From positions 1 through 64,000 of the forward strand of contig DLMY01000030.1 of the NCBI GenBank assembly GCA_002478275.1: a DNA stretch of 64,000 bases, given 5' to 3'. Positions within the stretch are counted from its first letter, which is position 1. Every line of letters begins with the position of its first letter. A program made the position numbers and the translations under genes. The notes beneath the pieces were generated by a model. It did no database searches and was not told the DNA's origin. It was given only the letters and a program-made list of their open reading frames with translations. This DNA is from Actinobacteria bacterium UBA7524. Lineage in GTDB: Bacteria > Actinomycetota > Coriobacteriia > Anaerosomatales > UBA912. Shown here one piece after another: positions 19,409-59,040 of the stretch.

Positions 19409-19418
19409 GGGTTGGCGG

Positions 19419-24783: not shown

Positions 24784-25637
24784 TGAACACGCGGGTTCTG
24801 CTCGTACCGAACAACCGGAACACGAAAGCTCTCGCAGCAGCTCAGGAACTGGAGGCTTGGCTCGCCGAGGAGGGATTCGAGCCAGTGCTCGCCGCTGAGG
24901 ACGCTGCCGCAGTGGGTGTTCCTTCACGGGGGGTCGTGCCGACCGAGATAGGCACGCCGGCGCTGGCCGTCGCGCTTGGCGGAGACGGGACCATCCTGAA
25001 GGCCGTTCACGTGTTGGGTGAGGTCGACACGCCGATCCTCGGCGTCAACCTGGGCAGACTCGGCTTCCTGAGCGGTGCTTCGGGCGCGAACATGCGGGCC
25101 GCCGTGACGACCGCGCTTGCAGGCGAGGGGAAGATCGAGTGCCGCGCTACGCTTGAGGCTGAGGTCGTGATGGAAGGCCGTGTCGTCGGCCGGTACCGGG
25201 CGCTGAACGAAGTGACGCTCGGCAGGGGGAGTTCCGGACGCGTCATCGAGATCGCGCTCGATATCAACGGAGCGAGAGTCACGACCCTCACGGGAGACGG
25301 GGTCGTGGTCGCCACACCGACGGGGTCGACCGCGTACGCGCTGTCGGTCGGTGGACCGATCGTGTCGCCGGAGGTCCCGTGCCAGGTGGTGGTGCCGGTC
25401 GCCCCGCACACACTGGCTCAAAGGGCGATGGTGTTGTCGCCGAGCGATGTCGTGGACCTGAGGCTGATGAATCCAGCGCGTAGAGATGCCTGCATCCACG
25501 TCGATGGCGAGGTAATGCCTTGCAGACGCTCGATCGAGAGCGTGTCGGTTCGCAGGGGTTCCCATGAGGTCAGACTCGTGAAGCTTGAGGGCCGGGACTT
25601 CTTCGAAGTGGTCCGTGCCGAGTTCTTGGGAAGCTAG
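24780..25637 (+). CDS. nadK: NAD kinase
   Basis: GGDGT, GRLGFL, LNE, TPTGSTAYALSVGGP. Confidence 0.96.
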   Translation: MMNTRVLLVPNNRNTKALAAAQELEAWLAEEGFEPVLAAEDAAAVGVPSRGVVPTEIGTPALAVALGGDGTILKAVHVLGEVDTPILGVNLGRLGFLSGASGANMRAAVTTALAGEGKIECRATLEAEVVMEGRVVGRYRALNEVTLGRGSSGRVIEIALDINGARVTTLTGDGVVVATPTGSTAYALSVGGPIVSPEVPCQVVVPVAPHTLAQRAMVLSPSDVVDLRLMNPARRDACIHVDGEVMPCRRSIESVSVRRGSHEVRLVKLEGRDFFEVVRAEFLGS

Positions 25638-25638
25638 A

Positions 25639-27261
25639 GTGCTGCGAGAACTCCATATCAGGGACTTGGCGTTGATCGAGGACGTATGGCTGGAATTCGC
25701 GCCAGGGATGACCGTGTTGAGCGGTGAGACCGGTGCGGGTAAGACCGCGCTGGTGGGGGCGTTGAAGCTGCTGGTCGGGGAGCGCGGTGACAGCACTCTC
25801 GTGAGGGCGGGGGCACAGGAGGCGAGGGTAGAGGGCGCTTTCCTGGTCGGGGAGCGCGAGATACTCGCAAAACGACGTATCGGTGCCGATGGGCGCTCCC
25901 GGTGTACGCTCGACGGCGAGATGTCGACGGTCGGAGCATTGGCTGAGCACCTCGGCCCGCTGATCGACCTGCACGGGCAGCATGAACACCAGTCACTGCT
26001 ACAGCCTGCACGTCATGTGGGTTATCTCGACCGTTTCGCTGGCGACACGGCGACCCGGGTGCTGATGGGGTACCGCGAGCGACTCGGCGAGTATCACGAG
26101 GCAGTCGATGCTCTGGTGCGGTTGGAGCGTTCGCTTGACGAAGCCGAGAAGCGGGCCGATTATCTTCGGTTCGTTGTGGCCGAGATCGAGTCGGCTGCGC
26201 CCACGGAAGGGGAAGACGAGCTCATAGGGGCGAAGATCCCCGTGTTGCAGCATTCCGAGCGGTTGGCTGCTGCTTCGGGGGAGGCGTACCTGGCTTTGCG
26301 GGGTGAAGGTGGCGCGTCGGACATCGCCGGAGTCGCCGTCTCCGCGCTTGCGAGGACCTCGGGGCTCGACCCTGTTCTCGACGAGCTGATGGCGCGTCTT
26401 CGTGATGCTCTGGTGTCTATCGAGGACATCGGGATGGAGCTGCGCTCCTATGGCGAGGGCCTTGAGCACGCACCTGGTGAACTCGACGCTTTGCAGGCAC
26501 GCGCGGCGACGCTTGCTGGTCTTAAGAAGAAACATGGTCCATCGTTGACTGATGTGCTTCGCACGGGTGCCGAGGCCGCTGAGGGCCTAGCCGCTCTCGA
26601 TGATGGAGGTCGGGCGCTGGAACGCGCGCGAGCGGGGGTCGAAGCCGCCCGTGCGGCGCTGTCCGAGGCCGGTGAGGCATTGATCGCTCTCCGGGCCGGA
26701 GTGGTCGAGGAGTTCCTCACTCGACTTCATGCCGCGTTGGAGGACCTCTCGATGAAGGGTGCGAGGTTCGAGGTCGAATTCGAGGACCTCGCACTTTCGG
26801 ATTGGACCGAGGATGGTCCGCATAAGGTCGAGTTCATGTATGCACCGGGAGCGGGACAGCCCTTCCGTCCTCTGGCGCGGATCGCTTCGGGTGGTGAGAT
26901 CTCGCGGGTGATGCTCGCGCTCAAGGGCGTTCTGGGTAGCGCGGATGATGTCCCCGTTCTCGTGTTCGACGAGATCGATGCAGGCATCGGAGGCGCGACG
27001 GCGCTCGATGTCGGGCGTAGGTTGCGTTCGTTGGCCGAGCGCCATCAGGTTCTGGTGGTGACACACCTCGCCCAGGTCGCGGTATTCGCTGATGCACACA
27101 TGGTGGTCGAGAAGACCTCGGACGATGACGGGGTGCATACGGCGGTGAGGACCGTGGATGCGGAGGCGCGGGTCGAAGAGGTGGCACGGATGCTCTCCGG
27201 TGCTGACAGCGAAGCGAGCCGCATCCATGCCCGGGAGTTGCTTGAGTCGGCGCGTTCCTGA
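25639..27261 (+). CDS. recN: DNA repair protein RecN
   Basis: GETGAGKT, HGQHEHQ, ASGGEISR, FDEIDAG, VTHLAQVA. Confidence 0.96.
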   Translation: MLRELHIRDLALIEDVWLEFAPGMTVLSGETGAGKTALVGALKLLVGERGDSTLVRAGAQEARVEGAFLVGEREILAKRRIGADGRSRCTLDGEMSTVGALAEHLGPLIDLHGQHEHQSLLQPARHVGYLDRFAGDTATRVLMGYRERLGEYHEAVDALVRLERSLDEAEKRADYLRFVVAEIESAAPTEGEDELIGAKIPVLQHSERLAAASGEAYLALRGEGGASDIAGVAVSALARTSGLDPVLDELMARLRDALVSIEDIGMELRSYGEGLEHAPGELDALQARAATLAGLKKKHGPSLTDVLRTGAEAAEGLAALDDGGRALERARAGVEAARAALSEAGEALIALRAGVVEEFLTRLHAALEDLSMKGARFEVEFEDLALSDWTEDGPHKVEFMYAPGAGQPFRPLARIASGGEISRVMLALKGVLGSADDVPVLVFDEIDAGIGGATALDVGRRLRSLAERHQVLVVTHLAQVAVFADAHMVVEKTSDDDGVHTAVRTVDAEARVEEVARMLSGADSEASRIHARELLESARS

Positions 27262-27374: not shown

Positions 27375-28496
27375 ATGCGGCATCAAGGCATCGCCAGGCT
27401 AGACAGGCGAACCAAGGATCTGGTCAAGCGGCTGGACTCCGACGACATCGCCGTAATAGACCATATGGATATCGACCGAGTGAGTGCTGAAGCGCTGATC
27501 GGCACGGGTGTGGAGTGTGTCGTCAACGCATCTCCGTCCATCACAGGTACGTATCCCAACGTGGGACCGCTGCTGCTTGCTCGTGGAGGCGTGCATCTGC
27601 TCGACCGAGTGGGGCCCGCTGTCTTCGAACGCATACGAGAGGGTGCTCCTATCGAGATCATCGGTACGGAGGTTTGGTCGAACGGAGAACATATAGCGTC
27701 GGGAACCTGGTTGACGGTCGAGTCCATTGAGGAAGCGATGGAGAAGGCCAAGGCCGGGATAGGGGAGCAGCTCGACAGATTCGCACGCAACACCCTCGAG
27801 TTCCTCGACAAGGAGAAGGCTCTTCTGACTGAGGCGGTCGGGATACCGCAGACTCGGGTGAGCCTCCGCGGTCGGCACGTATTGGTCGTGGTGCGGGGCC
27901 ATGGCTATCGAGAGGACCTTCAGGCGCTCAGGCCCTACATTCGCGAGATGAAGCCGGTGTTGATCGGGGTCGACGGAGGAGCCGACGCGATCCTAGAAGC
28001 GGGTTTCACTCCCGACATCATCGTGGGTGATATGGATTCTGTCACCGACGGTGCGCTGCGAAGTGGGGCCGAGTTGATCGTCCACGCCTATCCGGATGGG
28101 CGCGCTCCGGGAATGGCCCGTATCGAGTCACTGGGTATCGAGGCTTCGACATGGCCACTCGCTGCGACCAGCGAGGACCTCGCGCTTCTCCTCGCATATG
28201 AGTCCGATGCGGACCTGATCGTTGCAGTGGGTACTCACGCCAATCTGGTCGAGTACCTGGACAAAGGGCGCAACGGCATGGCTTCGACGTTCCTCGTGCG
28301 CCTGAAGGTCGGCCCTAAGCTTGTTGACGCCAAGGGTGTCAACCAACTCTATCGTTCGGCGGTGGGCACTTCGGACCTGCTACTTCTGGCGGGAGCAGGG
28401 CTGGTGGCCATCTCCGCCATAGTGACCATTTCGCCACCGGCCAGGGGACTACTGTCGCTCATCCTGCTGCGCGTACGCGCGTGGATCGGGATCTGA
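27375..28496 (+). CDS. steA: SteA-family septal protein (thiamine pyrophosphokinase-like domain, C-terminal TM)
   Basis: DRRTKDLVKRL, DIAVIDH.DID, YPNVGP, IGVDGGAD, VGDMDS, MASTFLVRLKVG..LVDAKGV; follows recN. Confidence 0.88.
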   Translation: MRHQGIARLDRRTKDLVKRLDSDDIAVIDHMDIDRVSAEALIGTGVECVVNASPSITGTYPNVGPLLLARGGVHLLDRVGPAVFERIREGAPIEIIGTEVWSNGEHIASGTWLTVESIEEAMEKAKAGIGEQLDRFARNTLEFLDKEKALLTEAVGIPQTRVSLRGRHVLVVVRGHGYREDLQALRPYIREMKPVLIGVDGGADAILEAGFTPDIIVGDMDSVTDGALRSGAELIVHAYPDGRAPGMARIESLGIEASTWPLAATSEDLALLLAYESDADLIVAVGTHANLVEYLDKGRNGMASTFLVRLKVGPKLVDAKGVNQLYRSAVGTSDLLLLAGAGLVAISAIVTISPPARGLLSLILLRVRAWIGI

Positions 28497-28518
28497 GAAG
28501 GATCGAGAGGGAAAGACC

Positions 28519-29367
28519 GTGTACAACCTTCGATACCACATCGTGTCGCTCGTTGCGGTGTTCCTGTCGCTGACGATCGGGTTGCTGCTGGGAACGATCG
28601 TCGCCGAGAGAGGTACGCTTGATGCCCAGAGAAGCGCTCTGGTCTCAAGCCTGGAACGCGACTTCGCCGAACTCTCGGAACGCAATGCGACCTTGCAGGC
28701 GGAGAACGAGACCAGAGCGGATTTCGTAGGTGCGATCCTGCCGGAGCTCATCGGCGGGAGACTTGCGGACAAGACGATCCTGCTGATCGTCAATTCCGGT
28801 CGTACCGACGGACTCGGCTCTACGCAGGAGGCTATCGTCTCGGCCGGGGGTGTACCCGTCACGCTCACGATCGAGCGGCAAGGACTGGGACTTGATGACC
28901 CGGAAGTCCAGTCCGCGCTGGGGCGTGAGTCGGATACGGACGAAGAGACCTGGCAGCGTTCTATTGAGACGAGCCTTGCTCTGGAGTGGTCGTCGGCTGG
29001 GGAGCGTCCTTTGACTGAGGCACTCATGGAGCTTGGGATCCTCGGGTATGATGGCTTCGACCCTGAGACCGCAGTGGATGCGGTCGGTGTGCTTGCATCG
29101 TGGGACATGGAGCCTGCTGAGCGGATCCTGGACATTGCCGAGCGAATGGACGAAGCCGGCACAATCGCCATAGGTATCGAGGCACTTGGACGCAACACAG
29201 GTGTAGCAGTTGCCGCTGTGGACCACGGCCTATCCGCTGTCGATCACATGAGGCTCCCGGAAGGGACGTACTCTCTCGTGATGCTGCTCGCTGGTGAGGC
29301 CGAGGGCTACTTCGGATCGGGCGATACCGCGATCGCGCGGTACCCGCGCACTCTGCGCGAGGAGTGA
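28519..29367 (+). CDS. steB: SteB / MctB (DUF3186, 'copper transporter') family protein
   Basis: RYHIVSLVAVFLSLTIGLLLG N-terminus, coiled coil, SAVDH, G.FG C-terminus; follows steA. Confidence 0.88.
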   Translation: MYNLRYHIVSLVAVFLSLTIGLLLGTIVAERGTLDAQRSALVSSLERDFAELSERNATLQAENETRADFVGAILPELIGGRLADKTILLIVNSGRTDGLGSTQEAIVSAGGVPVTLTIERQGLGLDDPEVQSALGRESDTDEETWQRSIETSLALEWSSAGERPLTEALMELGILGYDGFDPETAVDAVGVLASWDMEPAERILDIAERMDEAGTIAIGIEALGRNTGVAVAAVDHGLSAVDHMRLPEGTYSLVMLLAGEAEGYFGSGDTAIARYPRTLREE

Positions 29368-29392
29368 CGCGCAGTCCATCCGAGCGCAGCTG

Positions 29393-30118
29393 TCAGGGCG
29401 ATCGTTCGCCTTGTGGGCGTTCGTCCCGATGTTGTACCGCAAGCCGCACAAGGGCTGTGGCGACGTGGACGAACTGTCGACCACGGTGGGTGAAGCCTTT
29501 CAGATCACGGCCTGTCGCTGCATGTGTCATACGGGTCGGAATCTCGATGAGCCGCAGGCCGGCGCGAAGCGCCCAGATGGTCATGGCGACCTCGACCCCG
29601 TATCCCGAAGCGAGTGGCTGCACTGCGTGGAGTGCGGAGGCATTCAGCGCACGTTGGCCCGAGAGGGGGGCGGTGGCGTCGAAGGGGCCGCCCAGTGCGC
29701 GGATCCCGAAACGGGCGAGACCCATCACCAGACCGAAACCTGCCTTCTTCTGCGGCTTCGGGAACGCCGCTATGCTCATATCGGCCTCACCCCGGACGAT
29801 CGGCTCGAGAAGCAACGCAGCCTCCTGCGCGCTTCCGCCCAGATCGGCGTCGATGAACATGACGATATCCGCACTCCCGCACAGGTGGTCGATGCCCGTC
29901 TGAAGTGCGCCTCCCTTGCCGAGATTCGAGGTCAGCGAGAGGACTTCGGCTCCGGCCAGTCTCGCTTGTCCTACCGTGTCATCCGAGGAATGATCGTCCA
30001 CGACGACGATTCTGTCGATGCCCTTGATGGTTCGGAGTGCGTCAACGGTCGACCCGATCAGGTCCGCTTCGTCATGCGCCGGAACCAGGGCGGTGATCAT
30101 GATGCGCTCACCGGGCAT
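29393..30118 (-). CDS. Family 2 glycosyltransferase (polyprenol-phosphate sugar synthase / GpgS-like)
   Basis: VPAHDE, VVVDDHSSDDT, NLGKGGAL, FIDAD, PLSGQRA, GYGVE. Confidence 0.9.
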   Translation of the reverse strand: MPGERIMITALVPAHDEADLIGSTVDALRTIKGIDRIVVVDDHSSDDTVGQARLAGAEVLSLTSNLGKGGALQTGIDHLCGSADIVMFIDADLGGSAQEAALLLEPIVRGEADMSIAAFPKPQKKAGFGLVMGLARFGIRALGGPFDATAPLSGQRALNASALHAVQPLASGYGVEVAMTIWALRAGLRLIEIPTRMTHAATGRDLKGFTHRGRQFVHVATALVRLAVQHRDERPQGERSP

Positions 30119-31712
30119 CGGTCCGCACCCCGAGTCGGCTTACCAGACGTCGTAGCATGGAAGCGGCCAACTCGACCTCGGGAACCCGGAGTAACGTGGC
30201 CGCCAGCCAGGTGACGCCAAGACCGGCCACGCCACCCGCAAGGACGGTCCCGATCGCGCGTACGGGTTGGCCGGCGGTATCCGGGAGCATGACTGAGACA
30301 CCCCACGCGGTAAGTCCTCCCAGAGCGGAGGCCGCCATGATGCGTGCGGTCACCCAAGTGATGCCGCGGATGTCGTATCCGCCGACCTTTCTGCGCAGAA
30401 GTACCGCGAGAACGAGCATGCTTGCGCCGTAGAACACACCGTCCGCGATCGGGATACCGATCAAACCGATGCCGGCAAAGCGTGTGGTCCCGGTGGTGAG
30501 AAGAGCGTAAAGACCGATATGCAGACCGACGAGTGCAAGGTTCGCGAGCATGGGGGTACGCGTGTCTTTGAGCGAGTAGAAAGACTTCAGGATGTACATG
30601 AAGGCGGCGAAGAAGAAGAGCCCCGCGCCCCACCACTGGAGGACCGCGGTCACTGTGGGTATGTCCTCGGCGGTGAAGCGGCCCGCCCGGTACAGGGTGA
30701 CCAGAGGTTCGGCAAGTGCTATGAGCATCGCGGCCATAGGGATTATCAGCATCCCGGTCGCACGCAGCCCGCGAGAGAACTGGGCACGGAACGCGACCAG
30801 GTCACGCTTGCCTGCGGCCTCGGAAAGTTCCGTGAATATCGCAGTAGCGAGCGCAACCGCAAGCACCCCGTACGGCAGCTGGTAGAACATCCATGCGTAG
30901 CTCAGCGTCGCAGGGCCTTCGGGCGCGACCGCGAATGCGTAGGCGTTGCGGAACGAGATGGCGACCATGTTGGTCGCGACGTAGATCATGGTCGGTATTG
31001 CCATGCGCCCCATGGCACGCAGGCCAGGGTGGGAGAAGTCGATCTTGAAAGAGTAGCTCGGGCGCAGTTTGAGCAGACTCGGAATCTGTACGGCGAACAT
31101 CACGAGTACACCCAAGGTGGTGCCGACGGCCAGCCACCAGTTCGCGGGCCCCGGGTCACGGGGAGCCAGGTAGACGTATACGAACATCGTGACTATCACG
31201 ATGAGGTTGTTGAAGACCGGCCCCAGCGCCGGCCACAGGAACTGTCGCCTGGCGTTGAGGAGGCCTGCGATCACCGCTCCCGCACCGTAGAACAGCACCT
31301 GCACGGCGAAGACCCGGAAGAAGAACGTTGCGAGCAACGCCTCTTCGGGACTGGTCCGGAAGGTCTGGGTACGCACCACCGCGCCCGCCCATATCGTGGC
31401 AGCCAATGCGATGAGGCCCAAGACGATGACGGTCAGGTTGAACGTGTAACTGGCGTAGCGCCACGCGTCTTCTTCGCCGCGCTGCTCGAGACTGTCCAGG
31501 AAGACGGGGATGAACAGGGAGGAGAGGATGCCCCCCGCGACCAGCTCGTACACCATGTTCGGGATGTTGTTGGCGACGTGGTACGACGCGGCCAGTGCGG
31601 TGACGCCCAGCGCGTAGGCGGTGGCCCACATCCGGACGAATCCCGTGATGCGCGAGAGCGCCGTTGACATGGACATGACAGCTGTTGAACGCGCGATCGT
31701 GGGGCGTGTGAT
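30108..31712 (-). CDS. murJ: MurJ/MviN family (MOP) flippase; first ATG at 31676, likely start at ATC 31712
   Basis: SRITGFVR, ANNIPNMVYELVAGG.LSS.FIP, YQLPYG, FYSLKDTRTP; many TM segments. Confidence 0.92.
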   Translation of the reverse strand: MTRPTIARSTAVMSMSTALSRITGFVRMWATAYALGVTALAASYHVANNIPNMVYELVAGGILSSLFIPVFLDSLEQRGEEDAWRYASYTFNLTVIVLGLIALAATIWAGAVVRTQTFRTSPEEALLATFFFRVFAVQVLFYGAGAVIAGLLNARRQFLWPALGPVFNNLIVIVTMFVYVYLAPRDPGPANWWLAVGTTLGVLVMFAVQIPSLLKLRPSYSFKIDFSHPGLRAMGRMAIPTMIYVATNMVAISFRNAYAFAVAPEGPATLSYAWMFYQLPYGVLAVALATAIFTELSEAAGKRDLVAFRAQFSRGLRATGMLIIPMAAMLIALAEPLVTLYRAGRFTAEDIPTVTAVLQWWGAGLFFFAAFMYILKSFYSLKDTRTPMLANLALVGLHIGLYALLTTGTTRFAGIGLIGIPIADGVFYGASMLVLAVLLRRKVGGYDIRGITWVTARIMAASALGGLTAWGVSVMLPDTAGQPVRAIGTVLAGGVAGLGVTWLAATLLRVPEVELAASMLRRLVSRLGVRTDAR

Positions 31713-31894
31713 CTCAGACTCCGTTCGTAGGTCGGTAGTGCTGTCTTATTCGGCCGAACGTATTGTACCGTTCCCATCCGCTATACTTTCCGGTGGGCGC
31801 TGTTTGTCATGATTCCGTTTCGATGACAGCGACCGAATCCCCTGGAGATGTGAAGTGCACGTCGTCATGCCCGGCGTGCCTTGGAGGTGTGCGG

Positions 31895-34306
31895 ATGAAG
31901 ACATACGTATCGGTGGCAAGATCGCCGTTTCGTGCGATCGCCACCACGGGACTGCGTGCCGTGGCATCTCTGGCTCTGTGCGCATCCGTGTTGCCCACGC
32001 CATGTTCGAGCGCTTTCGCATCGACCCCGGACGTGTCTGTGCGCAGGGTCGTCATCGTGCTTGCTCCATATCTGAGCTGGTCTGACATCGAGCAGGGTTA
32101 TGCTCCCTTCCTTGCCCGACTTGCCGAGGAAGGCGCCGTAGCGAACTTGAACACCAACAGCCGGAACCGTGCCGCGGTTCGCCCGGACATCCCGGTACAG
32201 GGGGCGCTGACGCTCTCGTCGGGGGTATGGGCCGCTGCAGACCCGGACGCCGCCGCTGCATATGGGATCGATGAAGAGGTCTCGGTGGGTACGGCCGGCG
32301 ATGCATACATGAGGGTCATGGGAGTGGGGCCGGCTGAAGCCTCGATCGTCTACCTCGGACTGCCACGGGCGCAGCGGTTCAACGCGCGATCCTCCACGCT
32401 CGATGTGCGTCTCGGGGGACTAGGCGAGGCGATCACGGCAGCTGGGGGTGTGACGGCGGCGATAGGCAATTCGGACCTCGGTCATCCGGTGCGCGATGGT
32501 TGGAGGATCAGGCCTGCAGCCATCGTCGCGATGGACGAGTCAGGACGTGTCGGCCTGGGGGACGTGTCCCAGGACCTGCTCGTCGAAGACTCCCGGGCAC
32601 CGTTCGGGGTAGTCACGGATCACAACAAGTTCGCGGCGGCTTACAGGCGTACCCTTGACGAACTCGACGGGCATGAAGGCCCTCAGCTGGTAGTGCTCGA
32701 TCCGGGTGACCTGGTACGCGCTGAGGTCTTCCGGCCCGATGTCGCTGCCCAGGTCTCAGAGAGGCACCATCTTGAGGCCGTGCGCTCGCTCGACCGTATA
32801 GTAAGGCTGGTTGCCGAGGAGATGGCACAGGATGCCGTTCTCTTGGTAGTGCCGCAGACGACGACCAGGTCACTCGCCGGACCGGCGCCTTTCGTACCCC
32901 TGATCGCCTGGTCCCCGGCCGACCTTGGCTGGAGCGGCGTCTTACTCACCTCATCGTCGACCCAGCAACGTGGCCTTGTCACGAACATGGACGTTCCCGT
33001 CACGATAACGAGGTTGCTGGGGGTGGAGCGTCCCGTTTCCTTCCTGGGAAACCAGCTCGTCAGTCAGAGTGCGGAACCCACTCTGCAGCAGAGGATCGAC
33101 TACCTCCAGCACTTCAGCGATGTGGCTGTGGCGATAGAAGCAGCTCGGGTCCCGGCGATCAACACGTTCATCGGACTGACGATGCTCGTCCTTGGCATCT
33201 CCGTGTTCGTGCTCTTTCGGTTCCAGCGTTGGTCGACGAACTTTGCTGTCGGGCTTTCCTCGGCATCGAGGTCTGCGTTGCTCGCATGCCTTGCAGCCCC
33301 CTTCGCATCGACGGCGATGTTCGCGTCGGGTCTTGATCCTGTCACGCGCGAGCGGGCGTTACTGGTCTTCGGCCTTCTGACAGCCATGATCTGGGTCATC
33401 GCCATGGCCTTTTCCCGGTTCGCCGCTTTCAGGGTGCCAATGGCTCTGATCGCGCTGGGCAACGCTTTGATCTTGATGATGGACCAGTGGCTAGGAGGGC
33501 CCTGGTCCTACACGGGCATCCTCAGCTTCTCGCCATTGGTGGCGGCTCGCTATTACGGCATGGGCAACGAGGGGGCCGCAATACTGATGGGCGCCCTGCC
33601 GGTCGGCCTTGCGCTGATCATCGACGAATACGCCTCACGACGATGGACGAAGATGCTGATGCGCGTGGGCTTCCCGGTCATCGGACTGATCGCCACCATC
33701 ACCGGCGCCGCGCCCTTCTTGGGCGCGAATGTGGCTGTTGCGGTGTGGGGTGCTGTCACCTTCGCCGTCGCGTGGGCGTTGACGAACCGGATCAGGATCG
33801 ACTGGCGTGTCATCACCGTGACCGTGCTGCTGGCAGTCGTCCTCATCGCTGCCTTCTCCTTCATCGACCTTGCCAAGGAGGACGGCGCGCAGACTCATCT
33901 CGGTCGTGCGTGGAGCAGTGCCGCAGAGGGAGGGATCTCGGAGCTGTGGCTCATCGTCGTCCGCAAGGCGGAGACGAACATGCGCATCCTGACGAGGACC
34001 AACTGGTCGTACCTCCTGATCGCGGTCGTCGGATTCCTGGCGTTCATGAGGTGGCGTCCGCAGGGCGACTTCGCGGAGACCTTGCGGGAGAATCCGGCCT
34101 TCTCAGCGGCCATGGCAGGCTGTCTGGCGGGTGGCGCCGTCGCGTACGTCACCGAGGACTCCGGCATCGTCATACCTGCGCTCATGGTGCTCTATGTGGG
34201 CACGGCCATTCTCTATCTGATGTTGGGCCGGCTCGAGCGTGAGAAGCGCGTGGTTCAGACAGGAGAGACCGCGACGTCCGGTTGTGCGACCGGCTCCGGA
34301 AGCTGA
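31895..34306 (+). CDS. 803-aa membrane protein: signal peptide, alkaline phosphatase/sulfatase-like ectodomain, about 10 C-terminal TM segments
   Basis: SD GGAGGT before ATG 31895; AFA cleavage site; VVIVLAPYLSWSDI..PFLARL and GLVTNMDVPVTITRLLGV; loop motifs RYYGMGNE, THLGR, EDSG. Confidence 0.75.
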   Translation: MKTYVSVARSPFRAIATTGLRAVASLALCASVLPTPCSSAFASTPDVSVRRVVIVLAPYLSWSDIEQGYAPFLARLAEEGAVANLNTNSRNRAAVRPDIPVQGALTLSSGVWAAADPDAAAAYGIDEEVSVGTAGDAYMRVMGVGPAEASIVYLGLPRAQRFNARSSTLDVRLGGLGEAITAAGGVTAAIGNSDLGHPVRDGWRIRPAAIVAMDESGRVGLGDVSQDLLVEDSRAPFGVVTDHNKFAAAYRRTLDELDGHEGPQLVVLDPGDLVRAEVFRPDVAAQVSERHHLEAVRSLDRIVRLVAEEMAQDAVLLVVPQTTTRSLAGPAPFVPLIAWSPADLGWSGVLLTSSSTQQRGLVTNMDVPVTITRLLGVERPVSFLGNQLVSQSAEPTLQQRIDYLQHFSDVAVAIEAARVPAINTFIGLTMLVLGISVFVLFRFQRWSTNFAVGLSSASRSALLACLAAPFASTAMFASGLDPVTRERALLVFGLLTAMIWVIAMAFSRFAAFRVPMALIALGNALILMMDQWLGGPWSYTGILSFSPLVAARYYGMGNEGAAILMGALPVGLALIIDEYASRRWTKMLMRVGFPVIGLIATITGAAPFLGANVAVAVWGAVTFAVAWALTNRIRIDWRVITVTVLLAVVLIAAFSFIDLAKEDGAQTHLGRAWSSAAEGGISELWLIVVRKAETNMRILTRTNWSYLLIAVVGFLAFMRWRPQGDFAETLRENPAFSAAMAGCLAGGAVAYVTEDSGIVIPALMVLYVGTAILYLMLGRLEREKRVVQTGETATSGCATGSGS

Positions 34307-34317
34307 CAAGGGGTTTG

Positions 34318-35322
34318 ATGTCCTTCCTGTTTACAGCGACGATCATCACCACCGGCGCACTTGCTCTGGCGCTGCCATGGCTCGGGATGCGTCTGTTGTG
34401 GCCTGCTCTTGCGCGCGATGGACACCGTGTGACCAATTACCGTGGTCAGCCGGTGACACTTGGTCTGGGCCTCGTGTGGGTGGTCTGGGCTGCAGGGGTC
34501 GCATCGGCTGTGCTACTCCAGAAGGTGATGGCCCATCACATCGGCGAAGCCCTCACCCCGACAGAACTCGAAACCCTCATCGGTCAGGGTTCATGGGCCG
34601 CTGCCTCACAGGTCTCAGCTGTGTACTTCCTCGCCGTGCCGATGGTCGTCTGGGCGCTCCTCTTCGGGCTTATCGACGATGTCTGGGGCGGCGCATCGGA
34701 CAAGGGCTTCAAGGGTCATCTCTCCAGTCTCGCCCGGGGTCGCGTGAGTACCGGAGCGCTGAAGGTGCTCGGCATCGGGCTGGCGTCGTTGGGTGCAGCA
34801 TGGCTGATCGTGGTCGGACGCCAGAGCGGCTCGTCGACGCTCACAACGGGGCAGCGTTTCTGGACATGGGCACTGGCGGCAGCAGTGATCGCCCTGTCGG
34901 CCAATCTCGTGAACCTGTTCGACCTGCGTCCCGGCCGGGCGCTCAAGTTCTATGGAGCATTCTCGCTTGCAGCCATCACCGCACTGGCGACGGTGTCCAC
35001 GGTTCGCGGAGCGAGCGCGACTTCTGTCGCGGTCTGGGCCTGGCTCTGGATGATCGGACCCGTGCTGGCGGTGTGGGGGTACGACCTCAGTGAACAGGGG
35101 ATGCTGGGTGACGCAGGTGCGAACGCTGCCGGAGCCCTGGCGGGATTCATCCTGGCGTACTCGCTGCAACTCGGCGGGTTGGCCGCGGCAACGGCGGTGC
35201 TCCTCGGCATGAATGTCTTGTCTGAGAAGGTGTCGTACTCGCGCCTCATCGAGTCGAATGCGGCGCTTTCGTGGCTTGACGGCCTCGGAAGGCCGGGTGA
35301 ACACCGCAAGGAGAACGGTTGA
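34318..35322 (+). CDS. Divergent MraY/WecA-like polyprenyl-phosphate sugar-1-phosphate transferase (PNPT superfamily)
   Basis: GLIDD, NLVNLFDLRPGRA and MLGDAGAN align with DD, NxxNxxDGxDG and FMGDxG of the MraY in this window. Confidence 0.78.
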   Translation: MSFLFTATIITTGALALALPWLGMRLLWPALARDGHRVTNYRGQPVTLGLGLVWVVWAAGVASAVLLQKVMAHHIGEALTPTELETLIGQGSWAAASQVSAVYFLAVPMVVWALLFGLIDDVWGGASDKGFKGHLSSLARGRVSTGALKVLGIGLASLGAAWLIVVGRQSGSSTLTTGQRFWTWALAAAVIALSANLVNLFDLRPGRALKFYGAFSLAAITALATVSTVRGASATSVAVWAWLWMIGPVLAVWGYDLSEQGMLGDAGANAAGALAGFILAYSLQLGGLAAATAVLLGMNVLSEKVSYSRLIESNAALSWLDGLGRPGEHRKENG

Positions 35323-35417
35323 CGGACGGATATCGCCGAGAAGGTCCCCGCTTCGCGGGATGCGCGGGTATAGTGGTGGTGTGCTCTTCGACGACGGCGG
35401 GAGGCTGAAGCGTTTCT

Positions 35418-37037
35418 ATGGCAAAACATATCTTCGTAACGGGTGGAGTGGTGTCCTCGCTCGGCAAGGGGATCACAGCGGCGTCGCTGGGCAGGTTGCT
35501 CAAGTCGCGCGGAGTCAAGGTCACCATCCAGAAGCTCGACCCCTATCTCAATGTCGACCCCGGTACGATGAGCCCGTTCCAGCACGGTGAGGTCTTCGTC
35601 ACCGACGATGGCGCCGAGACCGACCTCGACCTGGGACACTACGAACGCTTCATCGACGAATCGCTCACCCGTGACTGCAACGTGACCGCGGGCAAGATCT
35701 ACCAGACGATCATCAGTCGCGAGAGGCGGGGAGATTTTCTCGGCGGGACGGTGCAGGTCATCCCGCATGTGACCAACGAGATCAAAGAACGGGTCGTCCG
35801 GATCGCCGAGGACACCAATCCCGATGTCGTCATCACCGAGGTCGGTGGGACTGTAGGCGACATCGAGTCGCTGCCATTCCTGGAATCGATCCGGCAGTTG
35901 CGCCGCGACCTGGGTCGCCAGAACGTGTGCTACATCCACGTGACGCTGGTGCCGTGGATCGCAGCGTCCTCGGAGCTCAAGACGAAGCCCACCCAGCATT
36001 CAGTTCAGGAGCTGCGCAGCATCGGTATCCAGCCGGACTTCATCGTGTGCCGTTCGGACCGGGCGATCGACGAGTCGATACGCCGCAAGATCGCGCTGTT
36101 CTGCGACGTGGAGCCGCATGAGGTGATCGCGGCTGTTGACGCCAGGAGCATCTACGAGGTCCCGCTCAACCTGTCCGCTCAGAACCTCGACGGTATGGTC
36201 ATCGAGCGGCTTGCGCTGGCGTGCGGAGAGCCCGAGATGGGGGAGTGGAAGGAGTTCGTCGAGCACTCGATGTCGATCGAGCGAGAAGTGGACATAGCTC
36301 TGGTGGGCAAGTACGTGCAGCTGCCGGATGCATATCTCTCGGTGACCGAGGCGCTCGATCACGCGGGTATCTACCACGATCACAAGGTCAACGTGCACTG
36401 GGTCGACGCCGAATCCTGTACGCCCGAGGAAGTCGACGAGATGATGGCGCGTTTCGATGGTGTCCTGGTCCCGGGCGGCTTCGGTATCCGCGGTATCGAA
36501 GGCAAGATACGCGCTGCACGTTACGCGCGCGAGAATGGAGTTCCCTATCTGGGCATCTGTCTGGGTATGCAGGTCGCGGTGAGCGAATTCGCTCGTCATG
36601 TCGCCGGGCTGGACAAGGCGAATTCGACTGAGTTCGATGCGGTGACCGAGCACCCCGTGATCGACTTGATGCCCGACCAGCACGACCTGGACGACATGGG
36701 CGGTACGATGCGTCTCGGTACGTATCCGTGCAAGGTCTCTGAGGGCACGAAGGGCTTCGAGGCATATGGCGAGGAGCTCATCTACGAGCGGCACCGTCAT
36801 CGCTACGAGGTCAACAACGCTTATCGGGACAAGCTGCTGGATGCCGGGCTGGTGATCAGCGGCCTGTCTCCCGACGGGCGTCTGGTCGAGATGGTGGAGC
36901 TACCCGACCATCCCTGGTTCGTGGGCAACCAGGGCCATCCCGAGTTCAAGAGCCGTCCTACCAGGCCCGCGCCTCTGTTCCGTGATTTCGTCGGGGCAGC
37001 GACGCGGTTCCGGGCTACGCGTGAAGCACGGCCGTGA
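35418..37037 (+). CDS. pyrG: CTP synthase
   Basis: [42 protein letters not shown]. Confidence 0.98.
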
Positions 37038-38149
37038 GCGAGCGGGTACTCGACACTTTCCTGGACCTGGTGCGGATCGACAGCCCGTCACTCTCTGAAG
37101 CCGCAGTGGCGGCGTACTGCGAGTCCGCCCTGGAGCAGGCGGGATGTGAAGTCCGCCTGGACGACAGCGCGCGCATCACGGGTTCGGACACAGGTAACCT
37201 CATCGCCACCCTTCCGGCGGTTGGCAGTGACCGCACGCTACTGTTGTCGGCCCATATGGACTGCGTCGAGCCGTGCAGGGGGGTCGTGCCGGTAGTAGAG
37301 GACGGCCTCATACGCCCCGCCGGTGAGACCGTGCTCGGCGCCGATGACAAGGCGGGTGTGGCCGCCATCATCGAGACGGTGCGAAGGCTCGCCGCGCACG
37401 ATGGACCACGACCGGCACTCCGCGTGATCCTCACCGTTGCCGAGGAGATCGGTCTGTCCGGCGCCAAGGCCCTCGATCCGAAGGACGTGAACGGCGACCT
37501 GTGCCTTGTCCTTGATGCCGACGGCGTACCTGGCGGTATCGTCATAGCCGCGCCGACCCATTACACGTTCGTTGCGACGTTCAAAGGTCTGGCGTCCCAC
37601 GCAGGGGTGGCGCCCGAGGAGGGACGCTCGGCCATAGTCATGGCCGCACGTGCGATATGCGCGATGCGTACCGGGCGGCTTGATCAAGCCACCACAGCCA
37701 ATGTCGGCACCATATCCGGTGGCACCGCCACGAATGTCGTGGCTCCGACCGCTATCGTGACCGGCGAGTGCCGCTCCCTCGACGACGCCGAAGTCGAGAT
37801 CGTCCGCCAAGAGATGGAAACGGCCATGCGCGAGGCGGCTGCGACGGGACGAGGTTCTGTCGACATCGCCTGGACCCGGGAGTACGGTTCGTTCAGCATG
37901 CCGGCGACCGGTGAACTCCCCGATCTGGTCGCTGAGGTGTGTCGTGACATCGGTCTCGTGCCGTCCACGACATCGAGCGGTGGCGGCAGCGATGCGAACA
38001 TCCTTGCCGGACACGGCGTTCCTACCCTCGTGCTCTCATGCGGCATGCAGGGACTCCATTCCACCTCGGAACGGATGGCCGTAAGCGACTTGCTCGCCCT
38101 GGCCGATCTGGTCGAAGCCGTCGCACTGCGTTTTGCGACGCAGGGGTAG
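37034..38149 (+). CDS. M20 family peptidase (peptidase T-like, YqjE-like)
   Basis: [37 protein letters not shown]. Confidence 0.92.
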
Positions 38150-38155
38150 GGCGTC

Positions 38156-39265
38156 ATGCGTCTTGTCTGGGCCACAGTGGTCGCCATCAAGGGCTCCGAG
38201 GCAGGTTCTCAGCATCTCGACGTTGCTCTGGACGACCGCACGCGAGGCCAGGCCATCGCGTACCCGCACCTGACGGGTGAGTGCCAGGTCGCCGAACGCG
38301 TACTGCTGAACACGACCGCTGTGACACTCGGGCTCGGCACGGGCGGCGTGCATTTCGTGGTCGCACGGGCGGGCAGTGGCGAGGGGGTCGCACACGAGTC
38401 GGACTCCGGCGGTCACATCATGAAGTTGCGCTACACGCCGATACAGCACGACGTGCTCTCCGTCGAGGAGCAGGAAAGCCCGCATCACGAAGTGATGCGT
38501 ACCGCCGAGGAGATCGGCGGGATGCCCGTGGCGTGTTGCGGGTTGCACAGCCACGTACCGCTGGTCGCCGCAGCGGTCAAGGAGGCGGATCCGCGGTTGC
38601 GCATCGCATTCGTGATGAGCGATCAGGCGGCGTTGCCCATCGCGTTGTCCGATCTCGTGCGGGCTTCGGTTGCGGCCGGTCTGCTGGACACGACCATCAC
38701 GTGCGGACAGGCGTTCGGGGGAGAGCTTGAGGCCGTCAATGTCCATTCCGGTCTGCTGGCCGCGCGTCATGTGTGCCATGCAGACGTCGCCATCGTGGCT
38801 CTGGGACCCGGCGTGGTCGGGACGGCGACACCACTGGGGCACGGTGGTGTCGCGCAGGGAGAGGCTGTGAATACAGCAGCTTCGCTCAAGGGGCGACCCG
38901 TGGTGGTCCCGAGGATATCCTTCGCCGATGAACGCTCGCGGCACCGCGGAGTGAGTCACCACACGGTCACCGCATTGACGCGTGTCGCCCTGGCGCCAGC
39001 ATATGTGGCGATACCGGTCGTCCCCGGCGAGTTCAGCGATGCGATCGAGGACGCGCTTGAGAGCGCCGGTGTATGGGACCGTCATGTCAGGGTGCCCCCG
39101 CTGCCCCGTACCAGTTCATCCGGTCCCTCCCTACGGGGGGTCGAGGTACGGACGATGGGCAGGTCTGCCGCTGAAGACCCCGCGTTCTTCGCTGCCGCTT
39201 ACGCGGCCGGAGATGTGTGTGTCCGCCTTGCACACGGCGAGACGGTCACCGCCGGGTCCGGGTGA
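38156..39265 (+). CDS. DUF3866-family protein of unknown function
   Basis: LNTTAV.LGLGTGG, GHIMKLRYTP.Q, LHS, T.GQAFGG, GPGVVGT, R.SFAD.R.RH.G.SHH, TMGR...ED (family recalled from memory). Confidence 0.8.
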   Translation: MRLVWATVVAIKGSEAGSQHLDVALDDRTRGQAIAYPHLTGECQVAERVLLNTTAVTLGLGTGGVHFVVARAGSGEGVAHESDSGGHIMKLRYTPIQHDVLSVEEQESPHHEVMRTAEEIGGMPVACCGLHSHVPLVAAAVKEADPRLRIAFVMSDQAALPIALSDLVRASVAAGLLDTTITCGQAFGGELEAVNVHSGLLAARHVCHADVAIVALGPGVVGTATPLGHGGVAQGEAVNTAASLKGRPVVVPRISFADERSRHRGVSHHTVTALTRVALAPAYVAIPVVPGEFSDAIEDALESAGVWDRHVRVPPLPRTSSSGPSLRGVEVRTMGRSAAEDPAFFAAAYAAGDVCVRLAHGETVTAGSG

Positions 39266-39271
39266 GCGTTC

Positions 39272-40344
39272 ATGCGGGCGCTTCTTGAGGACTTCATGGG
39301 CTACCTGGCCGTCGAGCGGGGCGCATCACCGCATACACTGGATGCGTACAGGCGTGACCTGGGCATCTACCTGGAGGTCCTGGAAACCCGATCGGTTCGC
39401 ACTCCCGACGCGGTGACCGCCGATGACGTGCTGGCTCTTGTCGGTGAGCTGCGGCGGCGAGGATTCGCGCCCAGCACGATCGAACGCAGACTGGNNNNNN
39501 NNNNNNNNNNNNNNNNNNNNNNNNNNNNNNNNNNNNNNNNNNNNNNNNNNNNNNNNNNNNNNNNNNNNNNNNNNNNNNNNNNNNNNNNNNNNNNNNNNNN
39601 NNNNNNNNNNNNNNNNNNNNNNNNNNNNNNNNNNNNNNNNNNNNNNNNNNNNNNNNNNNNNGCTTCCACAAGTTCCTCGTACGCGAGGGCCTGACGGAGA
39701 ACCAGCCTGCCACCACGGTGCCGTTGCCGAAGGTACCGCAGCGGCTTCCCGACGTCATCAGCGTCCTTCAGGCCGAGGAGCTCGTTACCCAGCCGTTCGC
39801 GGAAGGTCCCGCGGGTCTGCGTGACAGGGCGATCCTGGAGGTCCTGTATGGGTGCGGTGTCCGTGTGAGCGAGTTGACCGGTGCTGATACCGGTGATGTG
39901 GATCTCAAGGAAGGCTTCTGGCGCGTCAGCGGCAAGGGCGGGAAGGAACGCGAGGTGCCGATCGGTGGTATGGCCGCACAGGCCCTCGAGGAGTATCTGA
40001 TCTCCGGGCGTCCGTTCTTGCGTCCGAAAGGTACGACCGGGCGCCCTTTCTCCGACGCACTGTTCCTTAACGTCCGCGGCGGAAGGCTTTCGCGGCAGGC
40101 GGTCTTTCGGATGGTTCGTGCGTATGGTGGCAGGGTGGGTCTGAAGATGCATCCACACACACTCAGGCACTCCTACGCTACACATATGCTCGAAGGTGGC
40201 GCCGATCTGCGAGTCCTGCAGGACCTCCTCGGCCATGCTGATATCGCCACGACACAGGTTTACACTCACGTCGACAGGCGGCACATCCGCGAGGAGTACC
40301 TCTCGACCCATCCTCGCGCGCGCTTGCGTGTCACCGGCGTCTAA
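39272..40344 (+). CDS. xerD: Tyrosine recombinase XerD (spans an N-gap)
   Basis: VERG.S.HT..AY.RDL, RDRAILEVLYGCGVRVSE, GKGGKER, HPHTLRHS, LLGHADIATTQVYTH, HPRA. Confidence 0.93.
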
Positions 40345-40433: not shown

Positions 40434-41528
40434 ATGATGCGCGTGGACGCACGGTTCCGGAGGTTCCTGGCTCTTCTTGTCGCATTCGCGCTTCTGGCGA
40501 CGATGGCGATCGGGTGTGCGGGGACAGACGACACGACCGACGATACCGATACCGGTGACGGGGCTGCCGAGGTCGATTTCTCGGTAGCGATGATCACCGA
40601 CGTCGGAGGGTTGGGTGACAAGTCGTTCAACGACGGTGTGTACGCCGGCCTGGAGAACGCGCGCGACGATCTCGGCGTTGAGATCCGCGCAGTCGAATCC
40701 AATGAGATCGCCGACTATGAGCCCAACATCGACCAGGTGGCTTCTGCGGGCTACAACATGATCTTCACGGTAGGTTTCCTCATGACCGACACCACCATCA
40801 AGAAGGCGCCGGAGTACGAAGACGTGTACTTCGTCGGGATCGACCAGTTCATCGAGGAGCCTGCGGACAACACCGTGGGTGTCTTGTTCAAAGAGCATGA
40901 GGGCGCCTACCTGGCTGGCGTGGTCGCCGGGCTGGCCACTCTCGATCCGGACCTGGATGACCGCATCAACGATGACAACGTCATCGGCTTCGTGGGCGGT
41001 ATGGACATACCGCCGGTCGAGAAGTTCCAGGCGGGCTTCATCGCCGGTGCCCGGTCCGTGAACCCGGACGTCCAGGTGATCAGCCTCTACACCGGGGACT
41101 TCGATGACCCGGCCAAGGGCAAGGAGATGGCGTTGTCCGCTATCGACCAGGGCGCGGACATCGTGTTCGCGGCCGCTGGTCTGTCAGGAGCGGGCGGTGT
41201 TCCGGCAGCTCAGGAGAGAGGCGCACTGTTCATCGGCGTGGACCAGGACCAGTATCTTACGATCCCGGGATCGGGCGACGTCATGCTGACATCATCGATG
41301 AAGCTTCTGGATGTTGCGGCGTACGACTTGATCAAGTCAGCCGTTGACGGTGCGTTCCCCGGTGGCTCGATCGTTGAGTTCGGACTCGCCGAGGGTGGCG
41401 TGGCGCTTGCGCCGTTCCACGATTTCGAGGACAAGATCTCACAGGAGATCCTTGATGCGATAGCCAAGGCCGAGCAGGACATCCTGTCGGGCGCCATCAC
41501 GGTTCCCGCATCGAGGGCAGAGCTCTAG
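40434..41528 (+). CDS. BMP/PnrA-family nucleoside-binding lipoprotein
   Basis: Lipobox AIGC; DVGGLGDKSFN, EHEGAYLAG, FDDPAKGKE, IGVDQDQ. Confidence 0.93.
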   Translation: MMRVDARFRRFLALLVAFALLATMAIGCAGTDDTTDDTDTGDGAAEVDFSVAMITDVGGLGDKSFNDGVYAGLENARDDLGVEIRAVESNEIADYEPNIDQVASAGYNMIFTVGFLMTDTTIKKAPEYEDVYFVGIDQFIEEPADNTVGVLFKEHEGAYLAGVVAGLATLDPDLDDRINDDNVIGFVGGMDIPPVEKFQAGFIAGARSVNPDVQVISLYTGDFDDPAKGKEMALSAIDQGADIVFAAAGLSGAGGVPAAQERGALFIGVDQDQYLTIPGSGDVMLTSSMKLLDVAAYDLIKSAVDGAFPGGSIVEFGLAEGGVALAPFHDFEDKISQEILDAIAKAEQDILSGAITVPASRAEL

Positions 41529-41583
41529 AATGGTGAGTGGCATCGGTCCGATACCTGGATCGTGATGCTGAGGTTGGCAACAG

Positions 41584-41621
41584 GGGGCGGTCGCTGCGTG
41601 AATATTCGCAGCGGTCGCCCC
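41584..41621 (+). terminator. Intercistronic stem-loop after the substrate-binding gene
   Basis: GGGGCGGTCGCTGCG-tgaatatt-CGCAGCGGTCGCCCC, 15-bp stem with two G-U pairs. Confidence 0.6.
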
Positions 41622-41677
41622 TTCGCGTGATACTCGCTATTGTGATGGGGTCGGCGGACACCGCTCAGGGAGAGGCC

Positions 41678-47826: not shown

Positions 47827-47835
47827 GGATTGACA

Positions 47836-48936: not shown

Positions 48937-48985
48937 GTCGAGGACGTTGCGATGCGTCTGTGGAAGTGAGAGGAGATGAGAAGCT

Positions 48986-49603: not shown

Positions 49604-49635
49604 GGCGGTACTTCGGCAACGGACATGGAGGCAGC

Positions 49636-51372: not shown

Positions 51373-51413
51373 TGAACGCACGGTACGCGTGCTAGCATAA
51401 GCAGTTCGACCGG

Positions 51414-55322: not shown

Positions 55323-55323
55323 C

Positions 55324-56694: not shown

Positions 56695-56725
56695 GGAGCA
56701 GGGGCATGAACAGGGGATCGCTCAG

Positions 56726-59018: not shown

Positions 59019-59040
59019 CTCAAGAGACCTGCAAGAGGCA

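Follow-up and report, generated by a model that had tools for sequence, protein, structure and literature searches.

A locus at positions 27375 to 39265 of a 64,000-nucleotide stretch of DNA (the window) from contig DLMY01000030.1 of Actinobacteria bacterium UBA7524 (assembly GCA_002478275.1; Coriobacteriia, Anaerosomatales) holds a lipid-carrier glycan module that is genuine, conserved across many lineages, as yet uncharacterised and linked to the septal proteins SteA and SteB (SteAB). On balance, we regard the region as an old and widely inherited envelope module in which SteAB is genetically coupled to enzymes acting on lipid-carrier glycans. A pathway of this kind had been proposed in a first-pass annotation of the window and is supported in part. 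Its central parts, a family 2 glycosyltransferase (GT2), an MraY-like protein, an 803-amino-acid (803-aa) protein and a MurJ-type flippase, stand on co-occurrence, linkage and fusions; pyrG and xerD are read here as synteny. What the analysis shows is to which families and folds the proteins belong, that their genes stay linked and co-occur, and that some of them are fused in nature. The host version of the module is an extended one, which includes the only MurJ of the cell and has the 803-aa gene beside the MraY-like gene.

The core genes in the window, which is high in G+C and comes from a metagenome-assembled genome (MAG) of 1.81 Mb in 60 contigs (83% complete), are the following.

steA, 27375-28496, plus strand: SteA with a thiamine-pyrophosphokinase-like domain, membrane-anchored and cytoplasmic (NF040608, PF12555, PF04263)
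steB, 28519-29367, plus strand: extracytoplasmic partner of SteA, MctB/SteB family (PF11382)
GT2 gene, 29393-30118, minus strand: soluble glycosyltransferase of 241 aa with a DAD motif (PF00535)
murJ, 30108-31676, minus strand: flippase of the MOP family (TIGR01695, PF03023)
803-aa protein gene, 31895-34306 (open frame from 31763), plus strand: alkaline-phosphatase (AlkP) fold ectodomain by model, without Pfam or NCBIfam match
MraY-like gene, 34318-35322, plus strand: PNPT fold by model; 334 aa, or 346 aa from the frame start at 34282

An earlier gene list is corrected in that GT2 and murJ lie on the minus strand, where they form a unit of their own, convergent to steAB and divergent from the 803-aa gene. 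Spacing on the plus strand is tight, with a gap of 11 nucleotides (nt) between the 803-aa and MraY-like genes.

Co-occurrence of the families

Co-occurrence was assessed in two fixed samples of 201 genomes each, all at least 90% complete, one of Actinomycetota and one of Bacillota-type genomes; eight of the genomes counted for Actinomycetota are flagged as unpublished (G284, G212, G149, G260, G193, G307, G165 and G230), and no further result draws on these eight. SteA and the MraY-like family occurred together in 95 Actinomycetota genomes and were both missing in another 95, while seven genomes had SteA only and four the MraY-like family only, two of these four matches being weak or partial. 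The corresponding Bacillota-type counts were 123 with both, 74 with neither and two of each single kind. Joint carriage was thus found in 95/106 Actinomycetota carriers and 123/127 Bacillota-type carriers, usually with the genes adjacent, and the two families travel together in both phyla as the proposal anticipated. In the mixed families f43 (8/15 genomes) and f45 (5/9), SteA and the MraY-like family are carried by identical genomes.

The 803-aa family shows a similar distribution. It was found in 63/201 Actinomycetota genomes, 60 of which also have the MraY-like gene, and in the Bacillota-type sample 120 of the 128 carriers had both families (803-aa only, 3; MraY-like only, 5; neither, 73), though there the 803-aa gene is found at a distance from steAB or on a different contig. 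Since the gene is unlinked in these genomes, inherited gene order cannot explain its co-occurrence with the module.

Conservation of gene order

Of 41 genomes of the order, 33 have the MraY-like gene. All 20 fetched loci, representing about 19 families, have the arrangement nadK-recN-steA-steB-(GT2 and murJ, inverted)-803-aa gene-MraY-like gene-pyrG-M20-DUF3866-xerD as far as each contig extends; tblastn missed the 803-aa gene in L028 and L030, and M20 is absent in L026. In other orders of the class the 803-aa gene adjoins the MraY-like gene in 10/11 loci, and family f26 keeps the whole block except M20. The MraY-like family was not found in families f27 (0/20 genomes), f29 (0/12) and f31 (0/20), nor was SteA (0/8, 0/1 and 0/6 genomes, respectively).

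The first-pass annotation had called for the neighbourhood to be followed across Actinomycetota and Bacillota, and the linkage persists far beyond close relatives. Eighty named loci were compared, all from Actinomycetota save one Bacillota-labelled MAG, and 67 of them had at least 4 kb of upstream sequence. They span Coriobacteriia MAGs, Rubrobacteraceae, Thermoleophilaceae and many cultured Actinomycetes, among them Oerskovia, Janibacter, Pedococcus, Knoellia, Phycicoccus, Brevibacterium and Actinomyces naeslundii. Among these 67 loci steA was present in 63; steB was detected in 60 and followed steA in 60. A MurJ-like gene also occurred in 60 loci, and GT2 and the 803-aa family were less frequent, at 25 and 24 loci. 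The Actinomycetes have the order steA-steB-MraY-like-MurJ-like-GT4(-803-like)-pyrG, where GT4 is a family 4 glycosyltransferase, and the deep classes have steA-steB-GT2-MraY-like(-pyrG)-DUF3866. In the Bacillota-type genomes all 15 loci show recN, a gap of about 2.5 kb and then steA-GT2-MraY-like in one direction, with steB detected between steA and GT2 in 13/15.

The MraY-like protein

The protein had been annotated as a second, divergent MraY-like transferase, and the MraY/GPT (PNPT) fold is supported by its AlphaFold2 (AF2) model (346 aa; predicted local distance difference test, pLDDT, 90.2; predicted template-modelling score, pTM, 0.90). In a Foldseek search ranks 1-33 were all MraY or DPAGT1 (best E 5.6e-5, probability 1.0, template-modelling score ~0.5), and beyond rank 33 the probability fell below 0.25. 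At the level of sequence, PF00953, the PNPT profile, is matched by 11/34 family members at E<=0.01 (best 3.6e-7). The 346-aa protein itself has no NCBIfam match, including TIGR00445 (MraY proper), and the family profile gave 0 matches among PDB sequences.

PNPT enzymes carry the acidic motifs DD, NxxNxxDGxDG and GDxGS on their cytoplasmic face. The motifs GL(I/V)DD, KGFRGH, NLxNLxDLRPGRALK and MLGDAG(A/S)N are invariant in the family, and 34 diverse members all retain D120/D121, N196/N199/D202 and D265 (in DD, NxxNxxD and GDAG); the Asp residues among these are presumably those that PNPT enzymes use. In hhalign the invariant residues pair with NTVNLTDGLDGLA and FMGDTGSL of the MraY encoded in the window, in an alignment with a probability of only 3.3%. 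The motifs, the partial PF00953 matches and a model that matches MraY and DPAGT1 alone in ranks 1-33 suggest that the 346-aa family is a separate, shortened branch of the PNPT superfamily, neither MraY nor WecA. The branch is large, with at least 2043 matches among 8000 candidates scored and relatives confirmed in at least 412/601 matched stretches of species-representative genomes.

The host has a third PNPT gene, an ordinary PF00953 match (140 bits) on contig 30 (G000:C30:74590-75054), and its single LCP gene (G000:C30:96235-96681) lies about 22 kb from it. These two genes may belong to a conventional wall-polymer pathway apart from the module.

The 803-aa protein

The 803-aa protein has no Pfam or NCBIfam match, PF00884 being absent even at E 10. 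Its AF2 model (pLDDT 85) shows an N-terminal signal or anchor helix, an ectodomain at about residues 50-395 and about 12 membrane helices. The fold of the ectodomain is that of alkaline phosphatase (VIA-align against PafA: Z 22.1, root-mean-square deviation 3.3, 277 residues aligned); 71 chains reach Z>=8, including LtaS (19.4), PbgA (19.7) and MCR-1 (17.8), and Foldseek places YejM/PbgA, LtaS, LtaP and sulfatases among the best matches (E 3e-5, probability 1.0). The AlkP-like ectodomain on a polytopic protein, which had been suggested from the sequence, is accordingly borne out by model and fold searches. D64, T106, D269 and D272 are invariant in the ectodomain, which has no invariant His; T106 and D64/D269/D272 may occupy the expected nucleophile and metal-ligand positions.

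The membrane part contains RYYGxGNE, which is invariant in 29 homologues. In fold searches with the whole model the matches were filled by the ectodomain, and an ESM Atlas search with the membrane half returned unnamed Actinomycetota clusters alone; none of these searches gave the membrane domain a fold. With HMMER, 4740 cluster representatives matched the family at E<=1e-3, of which 1974 did so at E<=1e-30. The likeness to LtaS/LtaP, EptA/MCR-1 and PbgA/YejM is thus one of ectodomain fold. Compared with the LtaS/EptA type the order of the parts is reversed, the ectodomain preceding the roughly 12 helices, PF00884 and an invariant ectodomain His are missing, and the membrane domain has invariant motifs of its own.

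A partial match to the family was also seen in G046 of family f27, a genome without SteA and the MraY-like family, where a 671-aa frame (G046:C1:750316-751755) matches profile positions 276-754 only (E 1.7e-78) and covers the end of the ectodomain and the whole membrane part. In the Bacillota-type loci L191-L200 the 803-aa-family gene is flanked by a GT4 (Glycos_transf_1) gene in 8/10 cases, and a Wzz-like chain-length gene (L199) and a polyprenyl synthase gene (L191) were seen beside it.

Glycosyltransferase, flippase and natural fusions

The GT2 matches PF00535 at 59.6 bits (cut-off 23.3), and its D90-A-D92 motif is invariant in 33 members. It falls below the cut-offs of the named enzymes AglJ (TIGR04182, 85.7 of 325 bits), GpgS (NF010496, 63.4 of 262) and PpgS (NF058614, 51.4 of 370), and its closest solved structure is GpgS (E ~1e-9). 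A connection between a GpgS-like GT2 and the glyceric-acid-containing lipoteichoic acid of Clostridioides difficile was considered and dropped, as a listing-level literature search gave no support for it.

The flippase gene is a clear murJ (TIGR01695, 270.4 bits against a cut-off of 235.55; PF03023, 269.3 bits). Five of five Actinomycete genomes pair a divergent locus MurJ, scoring 117-153 bits, with a canonical one scoring 180-262 bits. In our reading the pathway needs a MurJ-type flippase to which the Actinomycetes dedicate a paralogue, and the single MurJ of the Anaerosomatales lineage probably serves both lipid II and the module product.

Natural fusions join the parts of the module to one another. 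The arrangement 803-like, GT2, 803-like is seen in several cluster representatives with a length of about 1760-1790 aa, with a GT2 part that matches the window GT2 over its full length (E 1e-51 to 1e-57); the named members of one such cluster are Acidimicrobiales MAGs. A fusion of 2394 aa, of equal length in JGI and Logan assemblies, adds MurJ in front (MurJ, 803-like, GT2, 803-like), and in L146 a single frame of 485 aa consists of PF00535 followed by PF00953, that is GT2 and MraY-like. No glyco-gene fusion to SteA or SteB occurred in the fusion sets examined. Apparent MurJ-GT4 (L141, L101) and MraY-like-MurJ (L129) fusions were rejected, as the domains are in different frames and the long frames stem from high G+C. 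A further protein (P0275, 1479 aa) and its cluster members are a tandem of two 803-like units with no GT2, from which the 803-aa family may act as a pair.

SteA and SteB

SteA scores 507.1 bits against NF040608 (cut-off 150) and 45.2 bits against PF12555, also matches PF04263, and finds the PDB SteA structures 9hmy/9hmz at E 5e-82. SteB matches PF11382 at 93.5 bits (cut-off 25.6) over residues 1-274, and its gene starts 23 nt past the end of steA. A complex prediction with SteA, the MraY-like protein and the GT2 scored 0.00, which gives no verdict either way. The host genome has five NlpC/P60 genes, the products of which are possible SteB clients.

In PMC12977500, SteAB is described as a septal transmembrane complex that positions a septal peptidoglycan hydrolase, SteB binding the coiled coil of the hydrolase RipA. 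The same paper describes a conserved SteA pocket resembling the nucleotide site of thiamine pyrophosphokinase, with carbohydrate binding predicted, the stabilisation of Corynebacterium glutamicum SteA by GDP or UDP, the location of steAB after spo0A in Clostridia, and SteA-SteB fusions (PMC12977500). The words 'glycosyltransferase' and 'MurJ' have 0 occurrences in the text of PMC12977500. Compared with the Mycobacteriales proteins (C. glutamicum SteAB; Rv1697/Rv1698-MctB), those of the window are clear family members and likewise follow recN. Mycobacteria-like genomes of family f66 that have SteA and lack the MraY-like family have steAB alone, whereas the window and most other carriers add four more envelope genes beside it.

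Relation to described pathways

The first-pass annotation knew of no described pathway joining these families, and none was found in the literature searched, supplements being outside its scope. A candidate experimental parallel is the C. difficile cluster cdr20291_1053-1057, which is reported to be essential (PMC12157513) and is annotated there as a pyrophosphokinase (373 aa), an exported protein (291 aa), a family 2 glycosyltransferase (230 aa), a glycosyltransferase family protein (274 aa) and DUF3866 (355 aa). Cells depleted by knock-down were short, swollen, phase-bright and chaining, and the authors state that the genes 'warrant further investigation' (PMC12157513). The annotated families, sizes and order agree with those of all 15 Bacillota-type loci. 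The window departs from the C. difficile cluster in several respects: its GT2 has the opposite orientation and forms a pair with murJ, an 803-aa gene is inserted beside the MraY-like gene, and DUF3866 is set apart from the module by pyrG and M20. Another C. difficile gene from the same study, cdr20291_1124, which encodes a 723-aa membrane protein, has a chaining phenotype and neighbours alaS (PMC12157513), was considered as a member of the 803-aa family; alaS is a neighbour in 0/10 Bacillota-type 803-aa loci.

Wall-polymer pathways of the WecA/TagO type comprise initiation, glycosyltransferases, a MOP flippase or ABC exporter and an LCP ligase. The module follows the logic of such polyprenyl-phosphate-primed polymers in combining an initiator of PNPT fold with a glycosyltransferase and a MurJ/MOP flippase. 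It departs from them in that its initiator would belong to a separate, truncated PNPT family with a DLRPGRALK motif, there is no LCP or polymerase gene in the locus, the host LCP being on another contig, and the outside step would fall to a kind of protein that is not known in those pathways.

Neighbouring genes and the rest of the window

The flanking and downstream genes are the following.

recN, 25585-27261, plus strand: 5' neighbour of steA
pyrG, 35418-37037, plus strand: CTP synthase (PF06418, 435 bits)
M20 gene, 37034-38149, plus strand: PepT-like M20 peptidase (TIGR01883)
DUF3866 gene, 38156-39265, plus strand: PF12982
xerD, from 39272 (frames 39272-39694 and 39718-40344), plus strand: 3' edge of the block
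mraY, 54279-55322, in the dcw cluster: canonical MraY (TIGR00445, 294.3 bits)
murG, 57873-59018, in the dcw cluster

The nine genes that had been named between recN and xerD were all found at their positions and in that order, and the canonical mraY/murG pair does lie apart from the locus, in a dcw cluster about 20 kb downstream. That cluster is complete (47830-62274: rsmH, PBP, murE, murF, mraY, murD, ftsW, murG, murC, murB and an ftsQ-like gene). The M20 peptidase scores 312.9 bits against TIGR01883 (cut-off 274.25), overlaps pyrG by 4 nt, and follows the MraY-like gene in the Bacillota-type loci L169, L170 and L172. DUF3866 matches PF12982 at 402.8 bits over profile positions 1-318 of 318, has no solved relative by sequence, is separated by 6 nt from the gene on either side, and comes directly after the MraY-like gene in L112 and L174. 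M20 and/or DUF3866 stand next in 9/15 Bacillota-type loci (DUF3866 in 8), and xerD was detected in 7/15. M20 and DUF3866 are conserved neighbours, the latter within the block in both phyla.

The gene pyrG follows the module in 59/67 loci and was detected in 0/15 Bacillota-type loci; in mycobacteria it presumably stands directly after steB. Its place in the module is probably one of synteny only, and pyrG, xerD, recN, tlyA and nadK are more simply explained as an old synteny block held in common with Bacillota than as pathway genes. The block dxs-tlyA-nadK-recN...xerD (22080-27261 and 39272-40344; L168-L182) is common to the Actinomycetota and the Bacillota-type phylum; its synteny is very old, and its genes are unrelated in function.

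A frameshift in xerD was ruled out, the gene being split by a run of N at about 39494-39650 and forming one intact frame in relatives. After xerD (40434-43240) lie genes for a Bmp/PnrA-type binding protein and an ABC ATPase, and bmp is kept there in most loci of the order. In L018 (G001, 17826-19899) tblastn detected the 3' end of recN and the 5' end of steA a second time, in part, beside the full genes, either a local duplication or an assembly repeat. Rfam had no match anywhere in the window, and promoter and terminator scans did no better than shuffles.

A proposed pathway and its alternatives

We propose a pathway in which the MraY-like protein would act at the inner membrane face, taking a sugar phosphate from a nucleotide sugar and loading it onto polyprenyl phosphate, and the soluble GT2 would attach a further sugar. 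A MurJ-type flippase, here the only MurJ of the cell and probably also that for lipid II, would then move the lipid-linked product outwards. Outside, the 803-aa protein would handle the product by its AlkP-type ectodomain and conserved membrane domain, and may transfer a phospho-sugar or a glycan to a wall or lipid acceptor. Cells would require the product in order to divide and separate normally, separation being the process that SteAB governs.

Several observations weigh against this reading. We infer every catalytic step, the order of the steps, the product, and any use or sensing of the product by SteAB. The two-by-two counts describe a pattern and are not a statistical test, related genomes being non-independent and the signal therefore overstated. 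The MraY-like family is missing from seven SteA-bearing Actinomycetota genomes, six of which belong to f66 (5.6-7.5 Mb), from which it follows that SteAB can work without the module, and in family f28 the 803-aa/MraY-like pair is kept, in places alone and apart from steAB. Adjacency is in itself weak evidence, since the unrelated genes recN, pyrG, xerD, tlyA and nadK are equally faithful neighbours. The 346-aa protein fails to match PF00953 even at E 10, the second Asp of DGxDG is lost (the motif reads DLRPGRA) and the MraY His motif is absent, and for these reasons the MraY-like protein of the window may not be a working transferase. The correspondence with the C. difficile cluster is drawn from annotation, size and order.

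The flippase adds to these points. The first-pass annotation had held that its proposal would fail if this murJ were the genome's only lipid II flippase and were unlinked elsewhere. In line with the first half of this, the locus murJ is the sole MurJ over the cut-off in the host genome (83% complete). A single MurJ is also present in the single-contig relatives G022 and G021 and in G110 and G041, while G016 has a second copy. As the only MurJ in closed genomes of the order, the locus murJ is probably a housekeeping lipid II flippase too, and its placement in the locus may be a housekeeping matter. A tree of 37 rows, built from 33 complete MurJ-domain sequences of fetched loci with the window MurJ and the fusion MurJ domain (the partial rows L126, L187, L186 and L189 were dropped), gave three well-supported clades. 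Their branching order has a support of 52, at which the tree does not place the Coriobacteriia copy with either the canonical or the locus-linked copies.

One alternative is that gene order is old and function is not shared. Here steAB, the glyco-genes, pyrG, M20, DUF3866 and xerD would be independent housekeeping genes whose adjacency dates back to the ancestor shared by Actinomycetota and Bacillota, and SteAB would be unrelated to the glycan enzymes. The preservation of dxs-tlyA-nadK-recN...xerD in both phyla despite unrelated functions is what such a history would give, and it is in line with the 7/102 SteA-positive Actinomycetota genomes that lack the MraY-like family and with the unlinked f28 pair. 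We nevertheless find it doubtful. The families are lost jointly in separate lineages, the same f43 and f45 genomes carry both, and both are missing in the genomes of f27, f29 and f31 that were searched. The 803-aa family keeps company with the module in 120/128 Bacillota-type carriers though unlinked, and the fusions join the glyco-parts mutually, though none includes SteA or SteB. The C. difficile cluster is reported to give one shared knock-down phenotype, with polarity not excluded.

A second alternative, to which we give little credence, makes the module a sensor and not a synthase. A degenerate PNPT protein would bind the lipid carrier or a peptidoglycan precursor without turnover and, with the SteA pocket, report precursor supply to the SteAB hydrolase switch, with no separate polymer being made. 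The short and divergent MraY-like protein, with its failure to match PF00953 and its lost Asp and His motif, would suit such a role, as would the presence of the only MurJ of the cell within the locus. SteA is moreover reported to bind GDP/UDP in one species, with no catalysis shown (PMC12977500). A pure sensor is harder to reconcile with the invariance of DD, the NxxNxxD Asp and the GDAG Asp across 34 diverse members. Dedicated GT2/GT4 enzymes, a dedicated MurJ paralogue and a large protein with an exported domain stand alongside, as a pathway with a product predicts, and in L146 the MraY-like domain is fused to GT2.

Least probable is a division into two unrelated units, with GT2-murJ as housekeeping genes (a lipid II flippase and an unrelated sugar transferase) and only the 803-aa/MraY-like pair as the module: the opposite strands and separate transcription, the canonical score (270 bits) and sole copy of murJ and the pair standing alone in L066, L068 and L071 would fit it, but in 15/15 Bacillota-type loci, as in loci of deep actinobacteria, the same GT2 subfamily lies directly between steA(B) and the MraY-like gene, fusions join this GT2 to the MraY-like domain and to 803-aa-family domains, once with MurJ added, and the Actinomycetes keep a MurJ paralogue at the locus.

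The coupling of SteAB to a lipid-carrier glycan module, which we prefer to these alternatives, can be extended to a more specific and rather speculative form that we consider unlikely as it stands. The product would be an essential lipid-linked sugar or sugar phosphate at the division site, the SteA pocket would read the UDP/GDP by-product or the lipid intermediate and so license SteB-dependent wall hydrolysis, and the 803-aa protein would represent a new class of outward-facing AlkP-type transferases that take phospho-sugars from polyprenyl carriers. If so, daughter cells would separate only while this envelope component is supplied, and the 803-aa transferase would be akin to LtaS, which takes glycerol phosphate from a membrane lipid.

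About half of the Actinomycetota genomes sampled and some 60% of the Bacillota-type ones carry this gene set together, and it is reported to be essential in C. difficile. Two proteins of the module fall outside every curated family. The fusions and the unlinked but co-occurring 803-aa family provide a concrete parts list. Identifying the product would extend the known components of the Gram-positive envelope, and could explain what the SteA pocket senses, linking precursor supply to cell separation.

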